A stretch of DNA of 64,000 nucleotides from an uncultured Planctomycetales bacterium (GTDB taxonomy: Bacteria; Omnitrophota; Gorgyraeia; Zapsychrales; JANLHA01), in assembly GCA_964374105.1 (NCBI GenBank), contig CAYJXI010000004.1, positions 13,202 to 77,201 on the forward strand. Reading direction: 5' to 3'. Within the stretch, counting starts at the first letter, position 1. Each line of letters begins with the position of its first letter. The translations under genes were made by a program, and so were the position numbers. This document shows positions 2,120 through 49,799 of the stretch, one piece after another. Below the pieces are notes generated by a model. That model worked only from the letters and a program-made list of their open reading frames with translations, searched no databases and had not been told where the DNA came from.

Positions 2120-3385
2120 ATGAAGGGGACATTAGAAAATCAAATAGTGAAAATGGCTAAGGCTGCTAAGCAGGCCTGTTTAAAGTTATCCCTTGTTCCT
2201 ACACAAGAGAAAAATAAGGCCCTGCAGGTGATGGTTGATTCTCTTATGATGAATAAAGACTATCTTTTTAAAGAGAATCAAAGAGACATTCATCAAGCTC
2301 ATAAGAATCGCTATTCCAAGGCTTTGATTGACCGTCTAACCCTCAATGAAAAACGGATCCAAGAAATGGCTCAATGCCTTCTGGAAACAGCTAAGTTAAA
2401 AGATCCGGTGGGGGAGGTGCTACAAACAATCACCCGGCCCAATGGTCTTAAGATTGAGAAGGTAAGAACCCCTCTAGGAGTCGTAGGAATCATTTATGAA
2501 TCTCGGCCCAATGTCACCAGTGATTGCATAGGCTTATGTTTGAAATCTGGGAATGCCGTGATCCTCAAAGGGGGAAAAGAGGCTTGTTATTCCAATCAGG
2601 CTATTTTTCATATTCTCAAAAAATCATTATCTCAAACTGCCATACCGCAAGAAGCCGTCCAATTGGTCCCTTCCCAAGACCGCAGGGCGGTCAATATCCT
2701 ACTAAGGTTAGATAAATATGTGGATGTGATGATCCCCCGGGGTGGAGAAAGCCTGATAAGCTTTGTGGCTCGACGTTCCTTGATCCCTGTCATTAAGCAC
2801 TATAAGGGAAATTGTCACACCTTTGTGAGTGATAAAGCCGACTTGAGGTTGGCTCAAACGATTTGTTTCAATGCCAAGGTCCAGCGACCGGCCACCTGCA
2901 ATGCGATGGAAACATTGCTCGTCCATCGGGCAGTTGCCTCGCAATTTTTACCGAATATGATTGTGGAATTTACAAAGGCCGGAGTGGAAATCCGTGGGTG
3001 TCCAATAACGCGCAAGGTCATCAAGGAAGGGATTAAAAAGGCAACTGAAAAAGATTGGTATGAAGAATATTTGGATTTGATTTTAGCCGTTAAGGTGGTT
3101 CATTCCCTTAAGGAGGCGATCGATCATATCAATACTTATGGGTCGCATCATTCCGATTGTATTGTGACGGAAGATAAACAAGAGGCGCAAGAATTCCTAA
3201 AGTCTGTTGATTCCGCCTGTCTTTATGTCAACGCCTCAACCCGCTTCACCGATGGATACCAATTTGGGATGGGGGCAGAAATTGGAATCAGCACCGACAA
3301 ATTACATGCCCGCGGACCGATGGCTTTGGAGGAGTTAACGACCTATAAATTCCTTATTTATGGTCAAGGACAAATCCGAGAGTAA
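2120..3385 (+). CDS. proA: Gamma-glutamyl phosphate reductase
   Basis: About 420-aa aldehyde-dehydrogenase-fold protein. It has typical ProA segments (VIYESRPNVT, catalytic Cys region NASTRFTDG) and is adjacent to proB. Confidence 0.85.
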   Translation: MKGTLENQIVKMAKAAKQACLKLSLVPTQEKNKALQVMVDSLMMNKDYLFKENQRDIHQAHKNRYSKALIDRLTLNEKRIQEMAQCLLETAKLKDPVGEVLQTITRPNGLKIEKVRTPLGVVGIIYESRPNVTSDCIGLCLKSGNAVILKGGKEACYSNQAIFHILKKSLSQTAIPQEAVQLVPSQDRRAVNILLRLDKYVDVMIPRGGESLISFVARRSLIPVIKHYKGNCHTFVSDKADLRLAQTICFNAKVQRPATCNAMETLLVHRAVASQFLPNMIVEFTKAGVEIRGCPITRKVIKEGIKKATEKDWYEEYLDLILAVKVVHSLKEAIDHINTYGSHHSDCIVTEDKQEAQEFLKSVDSACLYVNASTRFTDGYQFGMGAEIGISTDKLHARGPMALEELTTYKFLIYGQGQIRE

Positions 3386-4146: not shown

Positions 4147-5583
4147 ATGAAAGTTAACGAAAATAATAATGAAATTAAATTTGGGACAGATGGGTGGAGG
4201 GCCATCATCTCAGAAAAATTTACTTTCAAAAATGTCTCCATTGTCAGTCAAGCCATCAGCGATTGGATTAACCGTGACTTAAAGAAGATCCCTTATAAAA
4301 GAAAAAGGGTGGCGGTGGGTTATGATACACGGTTTATGTCAGCCGATTATGGGAGGATTGCGAGTTGTGTTTTGGCGCAAAATGGGATTGAGGTATTGCT
4401 TTCCGATTCCTCTATTCCCACACCGGCCCTCAGCTATGGAGTACCGCTAAACAAATGTGTTGCGGGTATTATGATTACAGCCAGCCACAATCCTTATTGG
4501 TTTAATGGAATTAAAATCAAAACACATCTTGGAGGGGGAGCCTCAATGGATATTACCGATAGGGTGGAGTCTTATCTGTATAAAACGGATGTCAAATCCA
4601 TGAATTTCGATGGGGCTATACGGGAAAGGAACATTCTCCTCCATGATTTTAAGGTCAATTATTTAAAATTTATTAAAAATTACATTGATCTTAAAAAGAT
4701 AAAAAAAGCCAGGTTTAAAGTTCTTTTGGATGCGATGCACGGCAGTGGCAATGGGCTTATGGCCGAGATTCTTAAAGGAACAAATATCCGGTTGTCCTTG
4801 ATGCGGGAAGATATCAATCCTTTTTTTGAGGGAACCAAACCTGAACCGGTTGTGGAATTCTTAAGTGAAATATTAGGCAGGGTTAAAAAGGAAAAGTTCG
4901 ATCTGGGGTTGGTTTTGGATGGAGATGCTGACCGCATTGCAGCTGTCGCTGCTCAAGGAGAATTTATCCATCCTCAGAAAATTTTAGGGTTATTGATCTT
5001 GCATCTTGTCCGTAACCGAGGAAGAAAAGGGGGCGTTGTCAAAACCATCTGCGGAACGACCTTGATTGATAAAATCACTCAAAAATTAAATCTCAAGCTT
5101 TTTGAAACACCGGTTGGATTTAAGTACATCTCGGATATTATGGTTTCGGAAAATATTGTGGCCGGTGGAGAAGAAGCGGGGGGAATGGGCTTTCAGGATT
5201 ATATCCCAGAAAGGGATGGAACTTTGGCCGGGCTCCTTCTCCTTGAGATGATGGTTTATCAGAAGAAGAATATAAAGAAAATCATCACTGAGATGGAAAA
5301 GGAGTTTGGTCATTACTATTATCAAAGAAGAGATGTGAAAATAAAGGAAGGCAAACAATTCGATTTGGATAAATTTAAATCGATGAGTCGCTTATTAGGC
5401 AAAAAGGTTGTTGAGGTTAAAGATTTTGATGGAGTCAAACTGATTTGTGAAGATGAAAGTTGGCTGATGTTAAGACCCTCTGGAACCGAGCCCCTTGTCC
5501 GTGTTTATTCGGAGGCCAAATCTCTTGCTCGAGCTAAACAATTGATTGTGTTGGGAGAAAAATTATTAAAAAGAAAGATCTAA
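4147..5583 (+). CDS. Phosphoglucomutase/phosphomannomutase family protein
   Basis: FGTDGWRA N-terminal motif and the active-site serine motif TASHNPYWFNG, in a 478-aa protein. Confidence 0.75.
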   Translation: MKVNENNNEIKFGTDGWRAIISEKFTFKNVSIVSQAISDWINRDLKKIPYKRKRVAVGYDTRFMSADYGRIASCVLAQNGIEVLLSDSSIPTPALSYGVPLNKCVAGIMITASHNPYWFNGIKIKTHLGGGASMDITDRVESYLYKTDVKSMNFDGAIRERNILLHDFKVNYLKFIKNYIDLKKIKKARFKVLLDAMHGSGNGLMAEILKGTNIRLSLMREDINPFFEGTKPEPVVEFLSEILGRVKKEKFDLGLVLDGDADRIAAVAAQGEFIHPQKILGLLILHLVRNRGRKGGVVKTICGTTLIDKITQKLNLKLFETPVGFKYISDIMVSENIVAGGEEAGGMGFQDYIPERDGTLAGLLLLEMMVYQKKNIKKIITEMEKEFGHYYYQRRDVKIKEGKQFDLDKFKSMSRLLGKKVVEVKDFDGVKLICEDESWLMLRPSGTEPLVRVYSEAKSLARAKQLIVLGEKLLKRKI

Positions 5584-6423: not shown

Positions 6424-9400
6424 TTGAGGTGTCAGAAAGTGATCAATTTTATTGAGCGCAAGCGAAACCCTAATATTTATCGTTTCATTACTGGATTTTT
6501 CTGTTTCTCTTTTTTTCTTAGTAGTATTATCCCGCCCTACTCTTTAAGTTACGCTCAGACTTTTCCTCAATATCTTCCCAACCAATTTCCTAATTTATCC
6601 GGTTATTCTATCCTTAATCTCCCAACCCCGGGAACAATGATAACGATGAGTGATGAATTTATCCCGGTCCTTGTCAAAGGAATTACCCTTTATCCTAATA
6701 ATCCACTCCAATTTGATTTTATTGTAGATACTGGTGATACAGATTTGGAAGGAGAAGAATTAAAGACAGAATCCAGTAAGTTGATCAAGTACTTTTTGGC
6801 CTCCCTTACCGTACCAGAAGAGGAATTATGGGTTAATTTATCCCCCTATGAAAAGGATCGGATCATTCCAGAAGGCTTAGGAATCACCGAAATGGGCAAG
6901 GACCTTCTGGCCCAGGATTATATTTTAAAACAATTAACTGCCTCGTTAATTTATCCTGAGAATGATTTGGGTAAAGAGTTTTGGGCACGAGTTTATAAGA
7001 AGGCACAAGAAAAGTACGGATCGACAAATATCCCCATTAATACCTTCAATAAGGTATGGATTCTTCCAGACCGGGCGGTTGTCTATGAACATGAGGGGAG
7101 TGCCTTTGTTGTTGAGCGTCATTTAAAAGTGATGCTCGAAGAAGATTATTTGAGTTTACAAAATAACCTGGGGAATGAAAAGCTGGGCACCCATCAACTT
7201 AAAGAAACCGATGTTAAAAACTTAAGCAACATTTCTGGTGAGGTGGTAAGAGAGGTGTTGATCCCGGAAATCGAAAAAGAAGTCAATGAGGGTAAAAACT
7301 TTGCTAACTTAAGGCAGATCTATAATTCCATGATCTTGGCGACATGGTATAAAAAGAATCTCAAAGAAAGCCTTTTGGGGCAAGTTTACATGGATCAGAA
7401 TAAAACCAAGGGTGTAGATGTTGACGACAAACTTATCAAACAAAAGATTTATGATCAATATATTGCCGCCTTTAAACAAGGTGTCTACAACTATATTAAG
7501 GAAGACGTTGACCCATTAACCCAAGATTTAATTCCCAAAAAATATTTTTCAGGAGGAGCCATGGGTGTCTGGGCAGAGCAATTGATTGAGCTGCAAGGAA
7601 GCCTGGAAAATCAACCTCCCCGGGTCGTGCAAGCGGTTACAAAACCTCGCGGCAAACATCGAAAGATCACCTGGGAAGCTTTAGATGTGGGAACCAATGC
7701 CAGACCTGAGGTGGTTGATGAGCTTGCAAAAGTTTTCCGTGGGCCAGCGATGCGGCTGTCCGGACTGGGATTAGATGAGAATCAGGAAAAGCTGGTTGAT
7801 GATACAATAGCCACCTATTTTGAAGGGGAAAGACTTAAAAGTGGCCGCCTTTTACTCCCACGGGATGAAGAATATCAACTCTTGGATCCCGATGGGGCCT
7901 TAAGGGATAATGGTGTCAAGATTTATCTTCTCCCGGGGTTAATCAACAAGATACTCCAGTTGGCGGATCAACGTAAAATTCTAAATCCCCCCATTGATCT
8001 TATTAGTCATCCTGGTCCTACCCGAAGAAATATTTATATTGATCCTGCTTATTTTGAATCCATATTGAAATTACAACCTAAAATCTGGCTCTCCCAATGG
8101 GCGGTCCATGAACTGGCGCATATCGAGCATCCTGAGGCGGAGGAAAAAGAAATTCTAAAAATGGCTCCGATTCCCGGGGTAACTCTTGCTGAAGAAAAAC
8201 CAGAAAGACTCAAATCCAAAGAGGAGCGTAAAAAACAAAAGGAATTTAAAAAACCAATCTTCAAGCGACCTGTTACGTTGAAGTCATCCATCCGCGAACT
8301 TGATTTTGGTCTTTTCCCTAATATTGCCCGGCCGGTGTATGCTTCTTTAGAGGAGGCAGGGATCAAAACCGTTGGCGATTTTAGGAACTGGACCGAAGAA
8401 GATCTCTCGAAGCTTAAATATATTAAAGGGAGAGTTGTCAAAAGAATCAAAGATACCTTGTTGAGAGAAGTCAAGGTGAAATTAAAAGGGGAAGAGGAGA
8501 AAAAAGCGAAGCCAGTGACAAAGAAAAAAAAGGAAGAAAAGACAGTTAAGGAAGAAGGGCCTATCACGCTAAAGTCCTCGATTCGACGGTTGAATTTGGG
8601 CAAGAGGCCATTTTCGGACAAAGTCTTTAAGGCCTTGGAATCGTCTGGGATTTTTACCATTAAAGACCTTAAAAATAAATCAGTAGAGGAATTGTTTAAG
8701 ATCAAGTGGATTGGAACGGATGTTGTGTTAAGGATAAAGACAGAATTGGTAAGAACGGTTGGGGAGAATTTAAAAGGCGAGGTATGGCCTGAAGTAAAGC
8801 CGGCGGTTAAGAAAGAGAAAAAGATTGATTTAACTGTCACAACCGAAACAGAAGGTTTTAGTGATGTCTATGGCAAGTCCTATTTGCAAGGGAACTCCGG
8901 TGTTTCCTTTACCAAGGTCCAGCTAAGAGAATTGATGGGCCGTTGGTCAGAGAAAGTTCCCTCTAAAGCTTCGGTCGCCCCGATTTCTTCCCGAATGACC
9001 ATGGGACTTTTTAATATTGGGTTGTTGGAGAGACTAGGCAATGGAACACCGGGACGACCTTATCAATACCGATTAGTCAGCTGGCTTCGGGAGAAGGCCT
9101 TAAAGTTGGATAATATCGAGGAGTGGTTAAGTTCTCAAGATCCCCGGCTCATCGAAAATGAATTGCAAAAGGCCCATGTTCGATATCGTAATATCCCTAA
9201 GGTTCAATCATTGGTCAAAAAATGGGAAAGAGATGTTAAGAAGGGTAAGGCACCGGCAAAAAAAGAGGTCGCAGCCGCAAGAATATTTGGACGTGTCCCT
9301 GGCTATACCATCTATGATGCCTTATTGGATATTATGTATTTAGAGAAGGAACTCAGTGGGAAAAAAGGAAAAGCCCCGCGAGTATCAGAAAAACAAGCCG

Positions 9401-12400
9401 TGGATTTAAAATTGACAACCGAAACTGAAGGCTTTAAAGATGTTATTGGAAAATCGGATTTGCAGAAAAAACCCGGGGTGACCTTTAATAAAAGACAGCT
9501 TATGCAATTTTGGGGACGATGGTCCAATGTCAAAAAAGTCCCAGGTAAAGAAGGGACGGCCTGGCGGGTGTTGATGGGGCTTTATTCGATTGGACTCCTT
9601 GAGGGGAAAAAGACAGATAAGGACTCCAAAATTTCCCAAGAATTTCGTTTGGTCAGTTGGTTAAGAGAAAAGGCACTGCGAGTCAAGGATATTGAAGAGT
9701 GGCTCATCTCCCAAGATCCTGAGCTCATTGAGGGAGAACTTAAAAAGGGCCATATCCAATATCGTGATTATAAAAGAGTTCGTAAGATTATTCAGCAATG
9801 GCAAAAAGATGTTAAACAAGGAAAGATTCCCAAGAGAAAAGAAATCCCGGAAGTGAAAAGAATGGGACGAGTTCCTGGGTATACCATTTATCATGCCTTA
9901 TTGGATATCATGAGCCTGGAAAAAGAATTAAGCAAAAAAGGAAAAGCTCCGGCCATGCGTTGGTCAGGATTGGAAATGGATGAGGGTCAAGAAAAGCTGG
10001 TGGATGATGCGGTTGCGAGTTATTTCGAAGGAGAGAAACTGATGGAAGGTCGATTGATCCTGCCGCGGGATGAAGAATTCAAGGTCCTGGATCCCGAAGG
10101 CGTCTTACGGGATAATGGGGTTAAGATATATTTTCTCCCCAATTTGATTGGTAAGATTACGCAGTTAGCCTCAGACCGTAAAATCAATAATCCCCCCATT
10201 GATCTTGTCAGTCACCCCGGTCGCACAAGAAGAAATATTTACATTGACTCAGCCTATTATGATTCAGTCTTAAAAAATCAAAGTAAGATTTGGAGAACGC
10301 AATGGGTTGCCCATGAACTGGCCCATATCGAAAACCCTGAGGCTGAGGAGATGACCATTCGAAAGATAGCTCCATTACCAACGGGTGAGAAAGTTGCTAA
10401 AGAAGCCCCTGTCAAACCGGAAAAGAAAAAAGCTGAAAAGAAAATAGAGAAACCTGAAAAACGAGAAGAAGAAAAGGAGAAGGTGGTAAAAGAAGAAGGG
10501 CTGATCACACTTAAGTCCTCGATTCGACGATTAGATTTTGGTCTTTTGCCAAATATTGCTGGACCTGTGTATGATTCTCTGGAGGAGGCGGGAATTAAAA
10601 CAGTGGAAGATCTCACTCAATGGAGCGAAGAAGATTTATTGAAGCTTAAATACATTAAGGCTAGTGTGCTACAGAGAATCAAAGATACATTATGGAAAGA
10701 AGTCAAAAAGAGATTAAAAGGGGAAGAGGAGAAAAAAGCGAAGCCAGAGAAAAAGAAGAAAGAAGAAAAGCCTATTGTGGAAGAAGGGCCGATAACGCTT
10801 GAGTCTTCGATTCGCAGATTGAATTTAGGGAAAAAACCATTTGTGTTGAAAGTCTACAAGGCCTTAGAATCAGCTGAGATTAAGACTATTGAGGATCTTA
10901 AGAATAAATCAGAAAATGAACTGTTAAAGATCAAGTGGATTGGGAAAGGAGTTGTGGCAAGAATAAAATCAGAACTGTTAAGCACGGTTGGGGAGACTTT
11001 AAAAGGCGAGGAGGTTAAAGAACCTCCTGAACCAATGGCTAAAAAGGGAGAGAAAAAAGAAGAGAAACCTCCCAAAAAAGAGAAACCGATTGACTTAACT
11101 GTTACAACCGAAACGCAAGGGTTTCAAGACATCTTTGGCAATCCCAATTTGCAAGGGAAACCCGGTGTGACCTTCACTAAAATCCAATTACAAGATTTAA
11201 TGGGGCGATGGTCAAATAAAGTTCCTTCTAAAGCTTCGGTAGCCCCGATTTCTTCCCGAATGACCATGGGGCTTTATAATGTTGGGTTACTCGAACGAAG
11301 AGGCAATGGTACCTCGCGAAGTCCTCATGAATATCGTCTGGTCAATTGGCTGAGGGAGAAAGGCTTAAAGTTGGATGATATTGAAGGGTGGTTAAATTCT
11401 CAGGATCCTGATTTAATGGAAAAAGAATTAGGCAAGGCCCATGTTCAATATGACGATCTCCCCAAGGTGCAAGAGTTGGTCAGAGCATGGAGGGTCCAAG
11501 TCGATTCTGGCAAAGCTGTAGAGAAAAAAGAACGTGAACCAGTCAAAAAATTTGGACGAATGGCCGGTTACACAATCTTTCATGCCCTGATTGATATCAT
11601 GAGTCTGGAAAAAGAATTAAGCAAACAAAAAGCTGAGGCTCCAAGCAAAGAGGCGGGTCCTAAGGTAGAAAAAAAGCCAAAGGAAAAAGAAAAGATTGCC
11701 AAACCCGGTACAACCCTACCGGAAAATGTCCTTAAGGCTTTACCATTTTTTGAAAAAATTTTGAAAAATCAAGTTACTGAAATTCCCCCAGAACAAATTC
11801 CTATTATGCGTGAGGTTTATAAGGATATTCTTCAAACATTTAGCAATATTAACGGTGATCCAGAAGCCTGGTTGAAGGCGCAGTTTAAGGTGGAAGAGGA
11901 TAACCTTGCGATTTTAATTTGGATCTATAATAAAAAACCAAAAATTGTCCAGTTTTTCTTGAAGGCATTGGAGGGAAGAGAAGAAGCCAAAAGAAAAAAA
12001 CCTATTAAAAAAGAGGAAGTCCCCAAGCCTGAAACAAAACCATTTTATCGAGAGAAGGGTGTACAACAATTTCTTGCGTCACCATCCTCGAAATTTATCC
12101 TTATATTCAATCAAAGCGGCTCAAAAAGAATTATTGATCTGAAGACCGCAGAGGATACGGGAATTCAGATTGAAGAGAAAGATGGGCCTAAGGCCCTAGA
12201 TGCAGTATTTTCACCAGAAGATCAATATCTAGTTGTTTGGTATGAATATGGGCCGGCTCGAATATGGGATTTAGAGAAGAAACAAGAACGCACGGATATT
12301 TCGATTGGCACCAACGAAGTCAGTCCGAAATTAATACCCGTCTTAGAACAAAGATATGGGAGGGGAACAGAAGCATTTAAACGTCAGCTGCGCAATGCCA

Positions 12401-15400
12401 AAGGTGTAAAAGCAGCCAAATTTTCCTTGGAAGGGAGGCGACTTTACATTCAGTATGCCAATTCCTTTGCCAAGGTGTTTGATGTGGAAACGGGTCAGGT
12501 CCTGGGTCCGGAGACAAAGACGCATGAACGGGCCATGTTTTCCCGCGATGGGACACTTTTAAAGGTTTGGCCTAAGCCAAAGAAGGGAGAAAGACGGGGG
12601 ATCTCCAAGCCAAATGTGATTGATATTAAGACTGGTGAGTTCAAGGGGGATCCTGGGAATGCCTTTGACTATGACGAGGAGGAAAATCCTCGTTTTGTTC
12701 ACCAAGTCCATGTTTATCCCCGTTTTTATGATCTGCCTCGTAAACCTATTTTCCTTAAAGTGTCACCCAATGGGAGATGGGTTTTATATTCGGATGGGCA
12801 AACTTATCTTCAAATATATGAGGTGGCGACAAAAAGGCTTCTTCCGATAACCTTTTCTAAAAATATCATTGATGGAAAAAGGGAGTTCCAAGTCGAGCCG
12901 ACCTTTACCGAGGATAACAAACTCCTTTTGAGTTTACGCCAATTTCGCGAAAGGATCTCAGGAAAACCCGATAGATGGGCAAGGTTAGATAGTCTGTTGA
13001 TTGATCTTGAGAACCCAACCGATATCAAAGAATTGCCCCGTAAGGCTTGGATTTCCTCAGATGGGAAGAAAATATTTGTTGTCACCAATATCGAACATGT
13101 TGAATCCGGCCCTCAATTACCTCGCCATCGCCTTTTGGAGGCCCTTGAGTTGAATGATACGGGTGTAGCTTTCCGGGATGATGTTAAATTAGAACTTCCT
13201 CAATTTACCTCCAATAGTAAAAAATTGATTGTCTATTTTGAAGATCAAGGGTTAGATGTGATTGATTTGGCTGTGGCCGAACCAAAGGTGATCAAAGAGG
13301 AAATTCTCCCGGAACCTGCGAAAGCAAAGGGTATTAAAGAAATTGACCTTGATGAATTCTTAAAAAAGATAGAAGGAACCCCTAATGATATCCCCTATAA
13401 AGTCTTGGATTGGATCACAGAGCAGAAAACACCCTTAAGATTTGAAGATCCCCCAAGGGCCCCACCGGTTTTTGAAGCTCTTTCTATTTACGATATCCCT
13501 GGGAAAGGAAGCCGATCCTTAGAGAAACTCTTAGAAGATAGCAAATTTCATAAACGGATAGGAGAGCATTTCATTTATCAAAGGGACGATGGGAGTTATT
13601 TGGTTATTCGATTCTTAAAAGAAGGGGAGGACCCTGGGCGGCTCCTCTATGAAAGCAAATGGTTTGATTATTTGCAGGAATTAAAGGACAGAGGGATAAA
13701 ACTCAATGGGAGTTACCCCAAAGCTGTCCTTTTAGACAATGAGCGGGTGGTGCGTTTAAGTCCACAGAAATTACCCGAAAGATTAGCAGATAACATACAA
13801 TTTTTTAAGGATGAGTCGGTTCAATTGCACTCAAGGGAGGAGGGGGATACATCTGGAATATCGATTTATACGCTTATGGCGTATAAAATCAGAGATTTGG
13901 ATTATGTGATTCCTTTGCCGGATGCCAAGCCCATTGACCAATCCATTCGGATCAACCTCCATGACTTATCTTTATTGCTTCGTTTGGGTTTGGTGAATCC
14001 AGAAATCATTAATCTTTTAAGCCGAAGCAGGATCAATGGGGGAGTGCATGAATCATTTTTGTGGATGGCGGAAATTTTACATGATGCCGAATGGAATAAA
14101 CGGGCAGAACGGCATAAGCTTTTTGAACTCGAAAGTTCGATCATCCAGGTCAAGATGAAGGCCAGTGGTCCTGGAAATTTTGCGGGTATGGTCAAGATCA
14201 ATGACTTAATCGAGTTGAAACCGCCGCTGGTGGATTTTAAGCAACTAGAAACCTATTCGGCGGATGATCGGACGAAACTTCTTTCTGTCTATTTTGTCGG
14301 GAATTATCTGATTGCAAGCATCTTAAGTGAGGCTAAAAGTTTACGGGAAGAATTTAAATTGAATGAGAATAGTCCTGACCATATGACAAAATTTGCCGAA
14401 CGTTTAAAATCAATCTATACAAACGCTTATGTATCCTTTAACAATAAACCAATACCCACCAAGATATTTTCTCTCATCAATTGGCAAGAATTGGCTCGAC
14501 AGATAGCTCAATTCATGACGGACAAGAGCCCTGAGGCGGTTAAACATCAAAGATTACCCTCGGAATTCCTCAAAGCCAACTATATTTTTACCGCCTTTAT
14601 GGTGGAAGATTTTGCCATGACCCATGGTAAAAGAGATCAGGCGATGTTGACAGGAATAGATTTAGAATCTGCCAAAGAGCAAGTCTCTTCCATACTGAGT
14701 GAATTTAATAATTGGGCACAGTCGTTTCGGGGGGAATATGATCCGGTCAAGTTATTCAGTGAAATTAGGGCGCAGATGACCACTTCTCAAGCATTGGCGG
14801 CATTTATCAAGCAAAATTTAGAAAAATTATTTCAGATCCGAAAGGAATTAACTGATAAAAAAGAGCTAGATAGTTTAAAGAGTTCGGTTTTAAGACAAAC
14901 CATTTCCAAATTGGATACACTTTTGTATCAATTGACTGGTGAACCGGCCTTCGTTTCTTTTGAAGGTTTTCTAGAGGCTTTTAGAGACAAGAAATCCCCA
15001 TTTTTTACATTAAAACCCGAAACAAGGTTAACCATCACCACCCAAGATACAAGGGAGTACAAATTCGCTTTTCGTCAATTTGATAATAACTTTGTCCCCA
15101 ACGCTATTTACGGGACAAAAGGAGAAACGGTTTACAATAACCATTACGGGCCAAAAGGAGAAGTCATTATCAGGGATTATATAACAAGCATTAAGGTCGG
15201 AATGGTTGATCAGGCGATAGTGACAAGGAAAGAACAACCCCCAACTCCAGGAACATTTACCAAAGGTGGGATTGATTTGAATCCAGAATTGCTAGATCTT
15301 CAAATCAAACGGGATGGGAAAGGAGTCCCGTTACCCTTGCTCCAACAACCTATCCAAGATATGAAGATTGAAGGCTTTTTACCGATCATCATCAATGTGG

Positions 15401-15582
15401 CGCCCGTCAACCTGCCTTTGCTTCTGGGAGTAGCGGAACCTGGAAAAAAGAAAGAAGACAAAGAGGCAGCACCTACCCCTCTGGATAGTGATTTAGGCTA
15501 TACGTCTCCTAGAGGCGTGGATTTGGTTAATAAGCGCTCAAAGAATTTCTATGCTAAGAAATTGAGTTTGGTCCTTCCTTAG
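6424..15582 (+). CDS. Giant (3052-aa) secreted or surface protein with internally duplicated modules. The true start is possibly GTG 6439, preceded by GAGGTG.
   Basis: Uninterrupted 9.16-kb ORF. The N-terminal hydrophobic signal-peptide-like segment is FFCFSFFLSSIIPPYSLSYA. It carries two HELAH-containing modules, four HhH modules resembling the RNAP alpha C-terminal domain, three copies of an approximately 190-aa module, a Lys/Glu-rich linker and a TolB/WD40-like region. It is followed by a strong intrinsic terminator. Confidence 0.8.
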   Translation: MRCQKVINFIERKRNPNIYRFITGFFCFSFFLSSIIPPYSLSYAQTFPQYLPNQFPNLSGYSILNLPTPGTMITMSDEFIPVLVKGITLYPNNPLQFDFIVDTGDTDLEGEELKTESSKLIKYFLASLTVPEEELWVNLSPYEKDRIIPEGLGITEMGKDLLAQDYILKQLTASLIYPENDLGKEFWARVYKKAQEKYGSTNIPINTFNKVWILPDRAVVYEHEGSAFVVERHLKVMLEEDYLSLQNNLGNEKLGTHQLKETDVKNLSNISGEVVREVLIPEIEKEVNEGKNFANLRQIYNSMILATWYKKNLKESLLGQVYMDQNKTKGVDVDDKLIKQKIYDQYIAAFKQGVYNYIKEDVDPLTQDLIPKKYFSGGAMGVWAEQLIELQGSLENQPPRVVQAVTKPRGKHRKITWEALDVGTNARPEVVDELAKVFRGPAMRLSGLGLDENQEKLVDDTIATYFEGERLKSGRLLLPRDEEYQLLDPDGALRDNGVKIYLLPGLINKILQLADQRKILNPPIDLISHPGPTRRNIYIDPAYFESILKLQPKIWLSQWAVHELAHIEHPEAEEKEILKMAPIPGVTLAEEKPERLKSKEERKKQKEFKKPIFKRPVTLKSSIRELDFGLFPNIARPVYASLEEAGIKTVGDFRNWTEEDLSKLKYIKGRVVKRIKDTLLREVKVKLKGEEEKKAKPVTKKKKEEKTVKEEGPITLKSSIRRLNLGKRPFSDKVFKALESSGIFTIKDLKNKSVEELFKIKWIGTDVVLRIKTELVRTVGENLKGEVWPEVKPAVKKEKKIDLTVTTETEGFSDVYGKSYLQGNSGVSFTKVQLRELMGRWSEKVPSKASVAPISSRMTMGLFNIGLLERLGNGTPGRPYQYRLVSWLREKALKLDNIEEWLSSQDPRLIENELQKAHVRYRNIPKVQSLVKKWERDVKKGKAPAKKEVAAARIFGRVPGYTIYDALLDIMYLEKELSGKKGKAPRVSEKQAVDLKLTTETEGFKDVIGKSDLQKKPGVTFNKRQLMQFWGRWSNVKKVPGKEGTAWRVLMGLYSIGLLEGKKTDKDSKISQEFRLVSWLREKALRVKDIEEWLISQDPELIEGELKKGHIQYRDYKRVRKIIQQWQKDVKQGKIPKRKEIPEVKRMGRVPGYTIYHALLDIMSLEKELSKKGKAPAMRWSGLEMDEGQEKLVDDAVASYFEGEKLMEGRLILPRDEEFKVLDPEGVLRDNGVKIYFLPNLIGKITQLASDRKINNPPIDLVSHPGRTRRNIYIDSAYYDSVLKNQSKIWRTQWVAHELAHIENPEAEEMTIRKIAPLPTGEKVAKEAPVKPEKKKAEKKIEKPEKREEEKEKVVKEEGLITLKSSIRRLDFGLLPNIAGPVYDSLEEAGIKTVEDLTQWSEEDLLKLKYIKASVLQRIKDTLWKEVKKRLKGEEEKKAKPEKKKKEEKPIVEEGPITLESSIRRLNLGKKPFVLKVYKALESAEIKTIEDLKNKSENELLKIKWIGKGVVARIKSELLSTVGETLKGEEVKEPPEPMAKKGEKKEEKPPKKEKPIDLTVTTETQGFQDIFGNPNLQGKPGVTFTKIQLQDLMGRWSNKVPSKASVAPISSRMTMGLYNVGLLERRGNGTSRSPHEYRLVNWLREKGLKLDDIEGWLNSQDPDLMEKELGKAHVQYDDLPKVQELVRAWRVQVDSGKAVEKKEREPVKKFGRMAGYTIFHALIDIMSLEKELSKQKAEAPSKEAGPKVEKKPKEKEKIAKPGTTLPENVLKALPFFEKILKNQVTEIPPEQIPIMREVYKDILQTFSNINGDPEAWLKAQFKVEEDNLAILIWIYNKKPKIVQFFLKALEGREEAKRKKPIKKEEVPKPETKPFYREKGVQQFLASPSSKFILIFNQSGSKRIIDLKTAEDTGIQIEEKDGPKALDAVFSPEDQYLVVWYEYGPARIWDLEKKQERTDISIGTNEVSPKLIPVLEQRYGRGTEAFKRQLRNAKGVKAAKFSLEGRRLYIQYANSFAKVFDVETGQVLGPETKTHERAMFSRDGTLLKVWPKPKKGERRGISKPNVIDIKTGEFKGDPGNAFDYDEEENPRFVHQVHVYPRFYDLPRKPIFLKVSPNGRWVLYSDGQTYLQIYEVATKRLLPITFSKNIIDGKREFQVEPTFTEDNKLLLSLRQFRERISGKPDRWARLDSLLIDLENPTDIKELPRKAWISSDGKKIFVVTNIEHVESGPQLPRHRLLEALELNDTGVAFRDDVKLELPQFTSNSKKLIVYFEDQGLDVIDLAVAEPKVIKEEILPEPAKAKGIKEIDLDEFLKKIEGTPNDIPYKVLDWITEQKTPLRFEDPPRAPPVFEALSIYDIPGKGSRSLEKLLEDSKFHKRIGEHFIYQRDDGSYLVIRFLKEGEDPGRLLYESKWFDYLQELKDRGIKLNGSYPKAVLLDNERVVRLSPQKLPERLADNIQFFKDESVQLHSREEGDTSGISIYTLMAYKIRDLDYVIPLPDAKPIDQSIRINLHDLSLLLRLGLVNPEIINLLSRSRINGGVHESFLWMAEILHDAEWNKRAERHKLFELESSIIQVKMKASGPGNFAGMVKINDLIELKPPLVDFKQLETYSADDRTKLLSVYFVGNYLIASILSEAKSLREEFKLNENSPDHMTKFAERLKSIYTNAYVSFNNKPIPTKIFSLINWQELARQIAQFMTDKSPEAVKHQRLPSEFLKANYIFTAFMVEDFAMTHGKRDQAMLTGIDLESAKEQVSSILSEFNNWAQSFRGEYDPVKLFSEIRAQMTTSQALAAFIKQNLEKLFQIRKELTDKKELDSLKSSVLRQTISKLDTLLYQLTGEPAFVSFEGFLEAFRDKKSPFFTLKPETRLTITTQDTREYKFAFRQFDNNFVPNAIYGTKGETVYNNHYGPKGEVIIRDYITSIKVGMVDQAIVTRKEQPPTPGTFTKGGIDLNPELLDLQIKRDGKGVPLPLLQQPIQDMKIEGFLPIIINVAPVNLPLLLGVAEPGKKKEDKEAAPTPLDSDLGYTSPRGVDLVNKRSKNFYAKKLSLVLP

Positions 15583-15611
15583 ATTGTTTGTTAAGGAGAT
15601 TTTTACTAAAG

Positions 15612-15640
15612 GCAACCTAAGATTTAGGTTGCTTTTTTTT
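15612..15640 (+). terminator. Rho-independent terminator of the giant gene
   Basis: GCAACCTAA-GAT-TTAGGTTGC: a 9-bp perfect stem and 3-nt loop followed by T8, located 30 nt after the stop codon. Confidence 0.8.
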
Positions 15641-15745: not shown

Positions 15746-15774
15746 TTGACAAATCAGTCTATTTTGCGATAATG
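15746..15774 (+). promoter_or_regulatory. Candidate sigma70-type promoter for rpsA
   Basis: TTGACA (15746-15751), a 16-nt spacer, then GATAAT. It lies about 85 nt upstream of the rpsA start. Confidence 0.35.
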
Positions 15775-48800: not shown

Positions 48801-49799
48801 ATGGGGGTTAAGTGGCGTGATTTTCAAATGCCTAAGAGGCTGGATTGCGATGAAGCAAGTTACACAAATACATACGGTCGATTTATAGCCGAACCATTCG
48901 AAAGGGGGTACGGTGTCACTCTAGGAAATTCTTTAAGAAGGATTTTATTATCATCCATCGAAGGCAGTGCGATAACTTCAATTAAGATCGAAGGAGTGCA
49001 GCATGAATTTACAACAATGTCGGGTGTACTGGAGCCGGTGACAGATATTATTCTCAATATCAAAGGCTTGGTCTTGAAATCCCATTCTAAAGTTCCCAAA
49101 TTAATCTATATCAAGGCTAATAAAAAAGGCAAAGTTTTAGCTAAAGAGATTATTTGTGATGAAACAATTGAAATCATTAATCCCGATCATCACATTGCCA
49201 CATTGGGTCAGGATATCCCTTTTAATGTGGAATTGGAAGTCTCTAAAGGCAGGGGCTATGTACCAGCAGAAATGAATAAGAAGGAGGGGGGGGGGCTTGA
49301 AGCAATTGTGGTGGATTCCATTTTTACCCCTATCAATAAGGTTAACTTTTTGGTGGAAAATACTCGGGTAGGCCAAAGGACCGATTATGATCGGTTAATA
49401 TTAGAAGTGTGGACCAATGGGGGCATCAATCCTAAAGAGGCCCTGCTTTATGCGGCTAATATTTTACAGCGACACCTAGATGTCTTTGTGAGTTATGGAC
49501 AACTCCCGGAAGAAGAAGAAGAGGAAGAGGAAATATCTGCGGAAGAACAGGCGCTTTATGAGAAGTTGCGTCTACCTATTTCTGAGCTGGAATTGTCGGT
49601 CCGCAGTGCCAATTGTTTAAAAGAAGCCAATATCAAGACCATAGCCGATTTGGTTAGAAAGAGTGAGTCGGAATTACTAAGTTTCCGCAATTTCGGTAAG
49701 AAATCTTTATCAGAAATCAGTGATCTTTTGAAAGTTATGGGGTTACAATTAGGGATGAAAATTGACAGCAAAAAATTAAGAAAGGTGACTTCAGAATAA
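48801..49799 (+). CDS. rpoA: DNA-directed RNA polymerase subunit alpha
   Basis: N-terminal domain motifs, a poly-Glu linker, and a C-terminal HhH domain (LSVRSANCLKEANIKTIADL). It contains a G10 run at 49286-49295. Confidence 0.95.
   Translation: MGVKWRDFQMPKRLDCDEASYTNTYGRFIAEPFERGYGVTLGNSLRRILLSSIEGSAITSIKIEGVQHEFTTMSGVLEPVTDIILNIKGLVLKSHSKVPKLIYIKANKKGKVLAKEIICDETIEIINPDHHIATLGQDIPFNVELEVSKGRGYVPAEMNKKEGGGLEAIVVDSIFTPINKVNFLVENTRVGQRTDYDRLILEVWTNGGINPKEALLYAANILQRHLDVFVSYGQLPEEEEEEEEISAEEQALYEKLRLPISELELSVRSANCLKEANIKTIADLVRKSESELLSFRNFGKKSLSEISDLLKVMGLQLGMKIDSKKLRKVTSE

Follow-up and report, generated by a model that had tools for sequence, protein, structure and literature searches.

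For a docking domain that works inside the cell on a tether, the textbook case is the C-terminal domain of the alpha subunit of RNA polymerase (alphaCTD), which within the enzyme is in contact with sigma region 4 at promoters. A precedent for a helix-hairpin-helix (HhH) fold outside the cytoplasm is ComEA, the exported HhH DNA receptor of natural competence, which has a single HHH_3-type (HhH)2 domain that follows a signal sequence or membrane anchor. MARTX toxins, which leave the cell by type I secretion and carry glycine-rich repeats, provide an example of conserved ends flanking variable cargo together with an internal protease-like module. Within the phylum Omnitrophota, giant mosaic proteins of at least 10,000 amino acids (aa) have been described, with many transmembrane (TM) helices and a C39/S8 peptidase, SecA or dockerin (bioRxiv 10.1101/2023.11.21.568195; 10.64898/2026.06.07.730766). 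Here we describe the gene of a 3,047-aa mosaic protein, predicted to be exported, which lies in a stretch of 64,000 nucleotides (hereafter the window; positions 13,202 to 77,201 of contig CAYJXI010000004.1, assembly GCA_964374105.1) from a genome deposited as an uncultured Planctomycetales bacterium and placed by GTDB in Omnitrophota. This giant protein carries four modules of the alphaCTD family as cargo between two conserved ends, or 'bookends', which it shares with a large set of other Omnitrophota proteins.

When the whole protein was compared with Pfam, RNA_pol_A_CTD (PF03118) was the top family (81.7 bits, E = 3.1e-23, in four stretches), followed by the generic HHH_5 model at 56.8 bits. 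PF03118 was also the best-scoring HhH family for each module taken singly, with scores of 23.6, 25.1, 28.1 and 32.4 bits for B1, B2, B3 and B4, respectively; only B1 fell below the gathering score of 23.8 bits, by 0.2 bits. An initial annotation of the window had described four alphaCTD-like HhH modules, and four is the exact number, as a hidden Markov model (HMM) built from these modules found no fifth copy in the protein. NCBIfam rpoA models matched the B stretches far under their full-length cut-offs, and in a PDB sequence search B4 matched alphaCTD chains of B. subtilis. Identity between B4 and the alphaCTD encoded by the window's own rpoA was 39% over 59 aa; the peptide that had been quoted from this gene for comparison is indeed present in it.

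The fold was assessed on an AlphaFold2 model of B4, with B1-B3 covered by their alignment to alphaCTD; the multiple sequence alignments for the B, A and C modules were shallow. In the B4 model (block-mean pLDDT 74-87) a short N-terminal helix is followed by helices at 18-28, 34-38, 42-46 and 53-67, and this predicted arrangement is the alphaCTD pattern. The best Foldseek matches of the model in PDB were nearly all alphaCTDs of RNA polymerase (probability 0.97-1.0), in agreement with the relationship proposed in the initial annotation; they came from at least 8 species, among them representatives of E. coli, B. subtilis, T. thermophilus, H. pylori, Caulobacter, Vibrio, Synechococcus and Streptomyces. 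For entries of isolated alphaCTD, TM-scores normalised by target were 0.66-0.85 and root-mean-square deviations 1.1-2.9 Å over 52-68 columns at 24-35% identity. E-values in this search were modest (0.06-0.9), since a domain of 60 residues was searched within a half-disordered query of 286 residues. The B modules genuinely belong to the alphaCTD (PF03118) HhH family, from which they have been recruited as cargo: their profile family and their four-helix double-HhH fold are those of alphaCTD (PDB 1LB2, 3K4G, 1Z3E), and like alphaCTD they are independently folded knobs on a long flexible linker. Unlike RpoA, a cytoplasmic subunit of ~330 aa, the giant protein had no match in the Pfam scan to the RNA_pol_L / RNA_pol_A_bac domain at the N-terminus of the alpha subunit, carries four copies of the module and is predicted to be exported by the Sec pathway.

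For comparison at residue level, the B modules were aligned with the window's RpoA and with E. coli alphaCTD (for which the residue numbers were verified by a backward count starting at 329). The hydrophobic core of alphaCTD (L260, L270, I275, L281, L289, I303), the D280 cap, the first hairpin and the N-terminal arm are all kept in the B modules, the arm 'L..PI..L.L' of alphaCTD being aligned with 'ITLKSSIRRL'. The picture is different for the 265 determinant, which we take to consist of the DNA-contacting residues R265, N268, C269, G296, K298 and S299 of E. coli alphaCTD. In the order B1 to B4, position 265 is occupied by P/K/P/K, 268 by A/K/D/K, 269 by S/A/S/A, 296 by K/G/K/G and 298 by R/D/S/G, while 299 is Val in all four; R265, N268, C269, K298 and S299 are thus replaced throughout. 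Position 302, which is Glu in alphaCTD, is Arg in every B module with reversal of charge, and an insertion of 4-5 residues (GLFPN / GKRP) precedes helix 1. Positions 261 and 287 (E261 and V287 in E. coli), determinants of activator and sigma contact, read D/N/D/N and E/E/E/N and are not strictly kept. The initial annotation had stated that the modules share the spacing and key residues of alphaCTD, which holds for the hydrophobic core and hairpin geometry but not for the DNA-contact residues.

By comparison, the alphaCTD of the window's own RpoA retains all six residues of the determinant. In a control set of 69 alphaCTD-like modules from other, array-type proteins (described below), Arg or Lys was present at 265 in 46 modules, Asn at 268 in 33, Gly at 296 in 52 and Lys or Arg at 298 in 33, and about half of such modules retain the DNA determinant. 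By this measure, the loss is specific to the modules of the giant protein. Net charges of B1, B2, B3 and B4 were +6, +7, 0 and +4, respectively, against 0 for the genuine alphaCTD. With the residues of the 265 determinant replaced, canonical minor-groove binding of the UP-element type, to which the initial annotation had pointed, is unlikely, above all for B1 and B3; the B modules may still bind nucleic acid non-specifically through electrostatic contacts.

Self-comparison of the giant protein, from which its module order was derived (Table 1), revealed two paralogous cassettes of the form A-B-B'-C, namely A1-B1-B2-C1 and A2-B3-B4-C3, with an extra C copy (C2) between them and with Lys/Glu-rich linkers joining the modules. 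The initial annotation had given the modules a span of 8269-11000, of which the start is exact and the end lies 10 nt before that of B4; this span also takes in C1, C2 and A2, none of which is HhH. At the amino-acid level B1 and B3 are 74% identical and B2 and B4 72%, compared to only ~49% for B1 and B2, and the unit is therefore a B-B' di-domain that was copied along with the A and C modules on either side of it. Nucleotide identity between the cassettes is 66-75% and synonymous divergence (dS) is 0.9-2.4, which is near saturation, and the ratio of non-synonymous to synonymous divergence (dN/dS) was 0.11-0.22 across the A, B and C pairs and the B-B' linker (A1/A2 0.11; B1/B3 0.12 at a dS of 1.36; B2/B4 0.22; C1/C3 0.19). 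From these values it follows that the cassette duplication is old and that all copies are under purifying selection; a recent tandem expansion is ruled out by the same nucleotide identities and dS values. The 9.1-kb reading frame is uninterrupted, and a second metagenome-assembled genome (MAG) holds a copy identical at 2980/2981 residues.

A whole-protein homology search returned more than 1,672 significant matches, and the details of the family given here come from the 119 non-self matches among those listed. These proteins are 1,700-5,300 aa in length, are assigned, where named, to Candidatus Omnitrophota/Omnitrophica, and share only two regions with the giant protein. One of these, at residues ~40-420, comprises the N-domain, which is 55-70% identical in 119/119 matches; the other is a C-terminal motif of ~55 residues (GGIDLNP.LLDLQIKRDG.GVPLP..QQPI..M.IEGFLPVIIN..PV.NLPLLLG), common to 117-118 of the 119. 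The middle of the proteins is variable and contains Pfam domains of cytoplasmic type, including enzymes (phosphoglycerate kinase (PGK), glucose-6-phosphate isomerase, triose-phosphate isomerase, GAPDH, enolase, PPDK, isocitrate lyase, malate synthase, phosphoglucomutase (PGM) and UGPase) as well as response-regulator receiver and GGDEF domains, HEAT repeats and DnaJ.

Scanning of species-representative GTDB genomes with the N-domain identified at least 591 loci, all of them in Omnitrophota-type MAGs, some of which are labelled 'uncultured Planctomycetales'. Genomes have several copies each, at least 6 for isolate OFTM38 and 5 for SMAG_U7936. B-, A- or C-like modules were absent from 78/78 other family loci followed for up to 10 kb downstream each, and alphaCTD cargo is unique to the giant protein among the family members examined. 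No match to the N-domain or the C-terminal motif was found in Pfam, NCBIfam or PADLOC; this includes the sorting-signal models of NCBIfam and Pfam, none of which matches the C-terminal motif. A PADLOC scan of the whole protein likewise found nothing, and an AlphaFold2 model of the N-domain (mean pLDDT 60, pTM 0.59) had no fold match in PDB. The bookend family is very large, Omnitrophota-specific and apparently unnamed.

All three elements that define this family, a signal peptide, an N-domain of ~380 aa and the C-terminal motif, are found in the giant protein. Its signal peptide (MINFIERKRNPNIYR-FITGFFCFSFFLSSIIPP-YSLSYA↓QT, the arrow marking the predicted cleavage site) has a K/R-rich n-region, an h-region of 18 aa and a c-region ending in SYA↓Q. 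Among 110 complete N-termini of the family, a hydrophobic core was present in 109, Lys or Arg before the core in 108 and an xxA↓Q/K site in 97, with cleavage-site variants that include SYAQ, GYAQ and AYAQ. Predicted export across the cytoplasmic membrane is well supported by these family-wide features, in line with the description of the protein as exported in the initial annotation. The further step made there, to an extracellular location, goes too far: Sec export takes a protein past the inner membrane only, and the hydrophobic C-terminal motif suggests tethering. The giant protein contains only two hydrophobic segments, the signal peptide and the C-terminal motif (hydropathy peak at aa 2982-3007); it may be tethered through the latter, and may also pass beyond the periplasm.

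The signal peptide is absent from the deposited gene calls. In the public NCBI version of the protein (P0001, 2981 aa, 100% identical) M72, within the conserved N-domain, is taken as the start, and P0001 and P0179 are both called without the first 66 residues, so that they lack the signal peptide as well as ~27 residues at the beginning of the mature protein. The deposited annotation therefore conceals the export signal. The stretch 5' of M72 (window 6424-6636) is conserved among homologues and has a good ribosome-binding site before it. While the mechanical open reading frame (ORF) begins at TTG 6424, GTG 6439 is the likely start, as a GAGGTG ribosome-binding site (6427-6432) lies 6 nt 5' of it and alignments to homologues begin at ORF residue 6, which corresponds to this codon.

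Two further module types accompany the B modules in the cassettes. Module A is ~150 aa long, and across 15 copies there is no variation in an upstream HPG histidine, the HExxH motif and a Glu eight residues later (H97, H130, E131, H134 and E142). It was compared with the zincin metallopeptidases, in which HExxH is accompanied by a third ligand. Many giant proteins, several of which have the same bookends, contain one to five A-like modules each; no relative of module A was found in Pfam, NCBIfam or among PDB sequences. As it recurs in many giant proteins and opens each cassette here, module A may be a processing protease.

Module C, of which the giant protein has three copies, had no relative among 1.84 billion representative proteins in an exhaustive HMMER search with the cassette as query, and it was not matched by Pfam S3Ae. 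A profile of the three copies gave a weak match in PDB to eS1, an archaeal and eukaryotic ribosomal protein, with 16 of 18 matches being eS1/S3Ae (best E = 6.7e-5, eS1 residues ~89-220). Of the single C sequences compared with eS1, C3 had an E-value of 0.036 and C2 gave nothing, and eS1 was found at E = 0.0064 in the whole-protein PDB search, over a stretch that takes in C1 and the end of B2. In the AlphaFold2 model, the portion for C3 (pLDDT 26-62) is unusable for comparison with eS1 and produced only low-probability matches of PadR/MarR-like winged-helix type. Region D, which follows the second cassette, gave WD40/beta-propeller-like matches at ~aa 1885-2040 (Pfam ANAPC4_WD40, 22.6 bits, below the cut-off) and an NCBIfam match to a SidJ-related pseudokinase at aa 2370-2448 (E = 2.3e-4, far below the cut-off); family member P0119 shares aa 2353-2701 of this region at 27% identity.

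Relatives of the B modules were found in other proteins. The exhaustive HMMER search with the A-B-B'-C cassette returned 59 matches, most of them to module A, while ~25 of the 59 were smaller, unrelated proteins in which alphaCTD-like modules are arrayed in tandem, at up to 10-11 copies per protein and with PF03118 scores of up to 327 bits. Seven of these uncharacterised array proteins (P0127, P0135, P0145, P0152, P0156, P0158, P0164) contain 5-11 tandem modules. The first two and the last four of these are similar to the giant protein in having multiple PF03118 modules per protein; they differ in being 300-1100 aa long, consisting almost only of repeats and having no bookends and no A or C modules. 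Some array proteins have signal-peptide-like N-termini and others a sigma-70 region 4 or a ResIII helicase domain, and the best pairwise matches of B1-B4 in such proteins were 33-50% identical. Neighbours of P0127 (locus L079) belong to the eukaryote-like Pfam families Palm_thioest and CCDC90-like.

The closest relative of B4, at 50% identity, is found in P0147, a protein of 2,286 aa encoded on a contig of 38.7% GC (locus L080, 30-6890). In this protein a sigma-70 region 4 helix-turn-helix is directly followed by two B-type modules that have the 'P.TL.S.I.RL' arm and the insertion and that, unlike the B modules of the giant protein, retain G296, K298 and S299. A recent copy of the window's own rpoA is ruled out as the source of the B modules, given the low identity of B4 to its alphaCTD and no reported match for B1-B3. 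B-type modules of other proteins are equally close or closer, and the arm and insertion shared with P0147 are missing from RpoA, both of which argue against such a copy. A profile scan with the B alignment found no relative on the contigs of GTDB representative genomes, a set to which the source genome does not belong.

With respect to its surroundings, the giant gene is followed by a terminator-like hairpin and, 5' of rpsA, by a strong promoter-like site, which suggests that it is a transcription unit of its own. Its upstream neighbours are obg, proB, proA, nadD, a phosphoglucomutase gene and an acyltransferase gene, and downstream there are rpsA, tyrS, tRNA-Thr, tRNA-Trp, nusG and rplK and then a run of plus-strand ORFs up to rpoA, all in the same (plus) orientation. 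The phosphoglucomutase gene (4147-5583), two genes 5' of the giant gene, is free-standing, and PGM is among the commonest cargo of the bookend family. The giant gene stands directly upstream of the rpsA-tyrS-nusG-rplK stretch leading to rpoA (window 6424-50000); genes of ribosomal operons have been reported to recur inside hypervariable regions of Omnitrophota genomes (preprint 10.64898/2026.06.07.730766). Two minus-strand ORFs, 8049..8840 (263 aa) and 10278..10616 (112 aa), overlap the B modules and linkers; being an F/S/L-rich mirror of the Lys/Glu-rich coding strand, they are most likely not genes.

Table 1. Positions of the giant gene, its modules and associated features in the window
Feature	Position	Strand	Residues (aa)	Remarks
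Giant gene, exported mosaic protein	6439..15582	+	3,047 aa	from GTG 6439; mechanical ORF 6424..15582 (TTG 6424), 3052 codons
Sec-type signal peptide	6439..6555	+		predicted cleavage after SYA (ORF residue A44)
N-domain, conserved in the bookend family	6559..7698	+	46-425	
Module A1, HExxH domain	7720..8193	+	433-590	HELAH at 562; self-similar to A2
Module B1, alphaCTD-like (HhH)2	8269..8493	+	616-690	subtype B
Module B2, alphaCTD-like (HhH)2	8560..8781	+	713-786	subtype B'
Module C1, orphan domain of ~190 aa	8824..9363	+	801-980	from self-comparison
Module C2, extra C copy	9400..9939	+	993-1172	from self-comparison
Module A2, HExxH domain	9925..10398	+	1168-1325	HELAH at aa 1297
Module B3	10504..10725	+	1361-1434	subtype B, paralogue of B1
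Module B4	10789..11010	+	1456-1529	subtype B', paralogue of B2
Module C3	11089..11628	+	1556-1735	from self-comparison
Region D, unique cargo	11647..15243	+	1742-2940	weak WD40/beta-propeller-like and kinase-fold-like signals
C-terminal family motif	15244..15453	+	2941-3010	conserved; includes the second hydrophobic segment
Terminator-like hairpin	15608..15636	+		13 bp, then T-run; 26 nt 3' of the giant-gene stop
Promoter-like site	15746..15773			strong; near-consensus extended -10 (TTGACA-16-tgGATAAT); 5' of rpsA
rpoA	48801..49799			alpha subunit gene of the window
Genuine alphaCTD of rpoA (comparator)	49542..49733	+	248-311	PF03118, 88.2 bits

On balance we favour, at somewhat better than even chances, an explanation in which the B modules are envelope-tethered docking modules that bind protein, or nucleic acid non-specifically, after Sec export. 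According to this explanation the giant protein would be translocated by Sec and cleaved after SYA44, and its C-terminal motif would keep it anchored on the outside of the cytoplasmic membrane or on the cell surface. The B modules would act mechanically like alphaCTD, each being a small rigid knob that folds on its own and docks onto a partner from a flexible charged tether, with an altered surface that would bind a protein partner, or nucleic acid non-specifically via positive charge, rather than AT-rich DNA of the UP-element type. They would cooperate with their neighbours A, a putative metalloprotease, and C, and each A-B-B'-C cassette would be a functional unit. The initial annotation had proposed either extracellular DNA binding or a co-opted protein-protein interaction domain, and of these the latter would be the more likely.

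Several observations weigh against this explanation. The role of the B modules is deduced from anatomy alone, and the tethering step is a guess, as neither the N-domain nor the C-terminal motif has a recognisable fold or family. ATP- or NAD-dependent family cargo of cytoplasmic type is hard to square with a periplasmic or surface site, and no secretion or competence genes adjoin the giant gene, the neighbours of which are housekeeping genes. Some affinity for DNA is possible, given that three of the modules are basic and that in B2 and B4 positions 265 and 268 are Lys and position 296 is Gly, and the modules of P0147 hint at a nucleic-acid-related ancestry.

There are also competing explanations. 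The modules could belong to an exported DNA receptor that binds extracellular or periplasmic DNA in a ComEA- or UP-element-like manner and captures environmental or prey DNA, which we consider unlikely, although the HhH fold is a classic binder of the DNA backbone and sits here in a protein with predicted export. B1, B2 and B4 are basic (+4 to +7), B2 and B4 present K265, K268 and G296, and the linkers are lysine-rich, but the contact set of alphaCTD is not conserved (Pro at 265 in B1/B3, Val at 299 in all) and B3 is charge-neutral. Nor does the parallel with ComEA extend beyond an HhH fold outside the cytoplasm, since the ComEA-type HHH_3 model (PF12836) was unmatched in the giant protein at E <= 1 and no nuclease, competence or DNA-uptake genes were identified in the protein or its neighbourhood. 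Still less probable is an effector directed at a host or prey, in which a polymorphic delivery family would have its cargo released by the HExxH module and alphaCTD-like decoys would titrate activators or sigma region 4, or occupy DNA. Conserved ends combined with hypervariable cargo that needs a cytoplasm (PGK, GAPDH, PPDK, receiver, GGDEF), many paralogues in each genome and a conserved HExxH domain (putative protease) at the opening of each cassette would fit such a system, as would the coupling of sigma-70 region 4 with two B-type modules in P0147 and the signal-peptide-like N-termini of some other alphaCTD arrays. Omnitrophota have moreover been inferred to be host-dependent or predatory (PMC10066038; bioRxiv 10.64898/2026.06.07.730766), although this link to predation comes from the literature and not from the locus of the giant gene. 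In its widest form, which we regard as just as doubtful, the proposal would be that of an unnamed Omnitrophota system of Sec-exported polymorphic carriers delivering mimics of the information machinery into host or prey: alphaCTD-like knobs, possibly an eS1-like module, and sigma region 4 in a related giant protein would be freed by the HExxH module and titrate host transcription or translation factors. Against delivery of either kind, neither a translocation domain nor a pore-forming repeat nor a secretion system could be identified, the fold of the bookends is not a recognisable one, the DNA residues are replaced and the sigma/activator contact positions 261 and 287 are not strictly kept. 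The resemblance to MARTX and polymorphic effectors is an analogy of logic alone, with no relationship to the giant protein found in sequence or fold.

Two further explanations were considered. The N-terminal hydrophobic segment might be an uncleaved anchor or of no relevance, with the bulk of the protein in the cytoplasm and the modules meeting the cell's own transcription factors or DNA. All cargo domains of the family are of cytoplasmic type, the NCBI gene call from M72 has no signal, and TM-only architectures facing the cytoplasm are common in the larger Omnitrophota giants (bioRxiv 10.64898/2026.06.07.730766). However, Lys/Arg residues before the h-region and a small-x-Ala↓Gln site are typical of cleaved Sec signals and are kept in ~100 paralogues, and homologues also conserve the region 5' of M72, which has a good ribosome-binding site ahead of it; a cytoplasmic protein is distinctly improbable. 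The possibility to which we assign the least weight, a very small one, is that the modules are evolutionary debris, functionless passengers of a recombination-prone giant gene. This would be consistent with the extreme variability of the cargo, the absence of B, A and C from all 78 other family loci and the failure to find relatives of module C among the 1.84 billion proteins, but not with dN/dS of 0.11-0.22 on all module pairs despite near-saturated dS, nor with an intact 9.1-kb frame and a conserved HhH structural core.

Compared with the Omnitrophota giants described previously, the present protein is alike in its phylum, in a predicted topology of signal peptide plus anchor, in being a mosaic of cytoplasmic-type domains and in having internal repeats that, judged by their nucleotide sequences, are old. 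It differs from the archaeovorin/dockerin-type giants of West-Roberts et al. (2023), which run to tens of thousands of residues and have many TM helices, in its size of 3,047 aa, in having two hydrophobic segments and in lacking Pfam matches to C39/S8, SecA and dockerin. Signal-peptide-plus-anchor topologies and metabolic/regulatory mosaics are both features of the giant-protein literature, in which the same paradox of localisation is debated (West-Roberts et al. 2023; Nielsen & Lui 2026). The novelty is that of a known domain family in a new context, within a partly known class of mosaic proteins. The literature searched, the coverage of which was incomplete, contained no description of the bookend family, its C-terminal motif or alphaCTD cargo, and nothing relevant on PF03118 outside RpoA or on secreted alphaCTD/HhH arrays.

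What the giant protein documents is the re-use of the alphaCTD fold outside RNA polymerase and apparently outside the cytoplasm: behind a Sec signal it has four copies that have diverged and are maintained by purifying selection. At its small size, the B-B' di-domain lends itself to direct binding assays. The family to which the protein belongs is sharply defined and multi-copy, with at least 591 species-representative loci and more than 1,600 database proteins, and has been missed by current annotation because there is no Pfam or NCBIfam model for either end and the gene call cuts off the signal peptide. It offers an entry point to the question of what exported 'cytoplasmic' domains do in the giant proteins of host-dependent nanobacteria.

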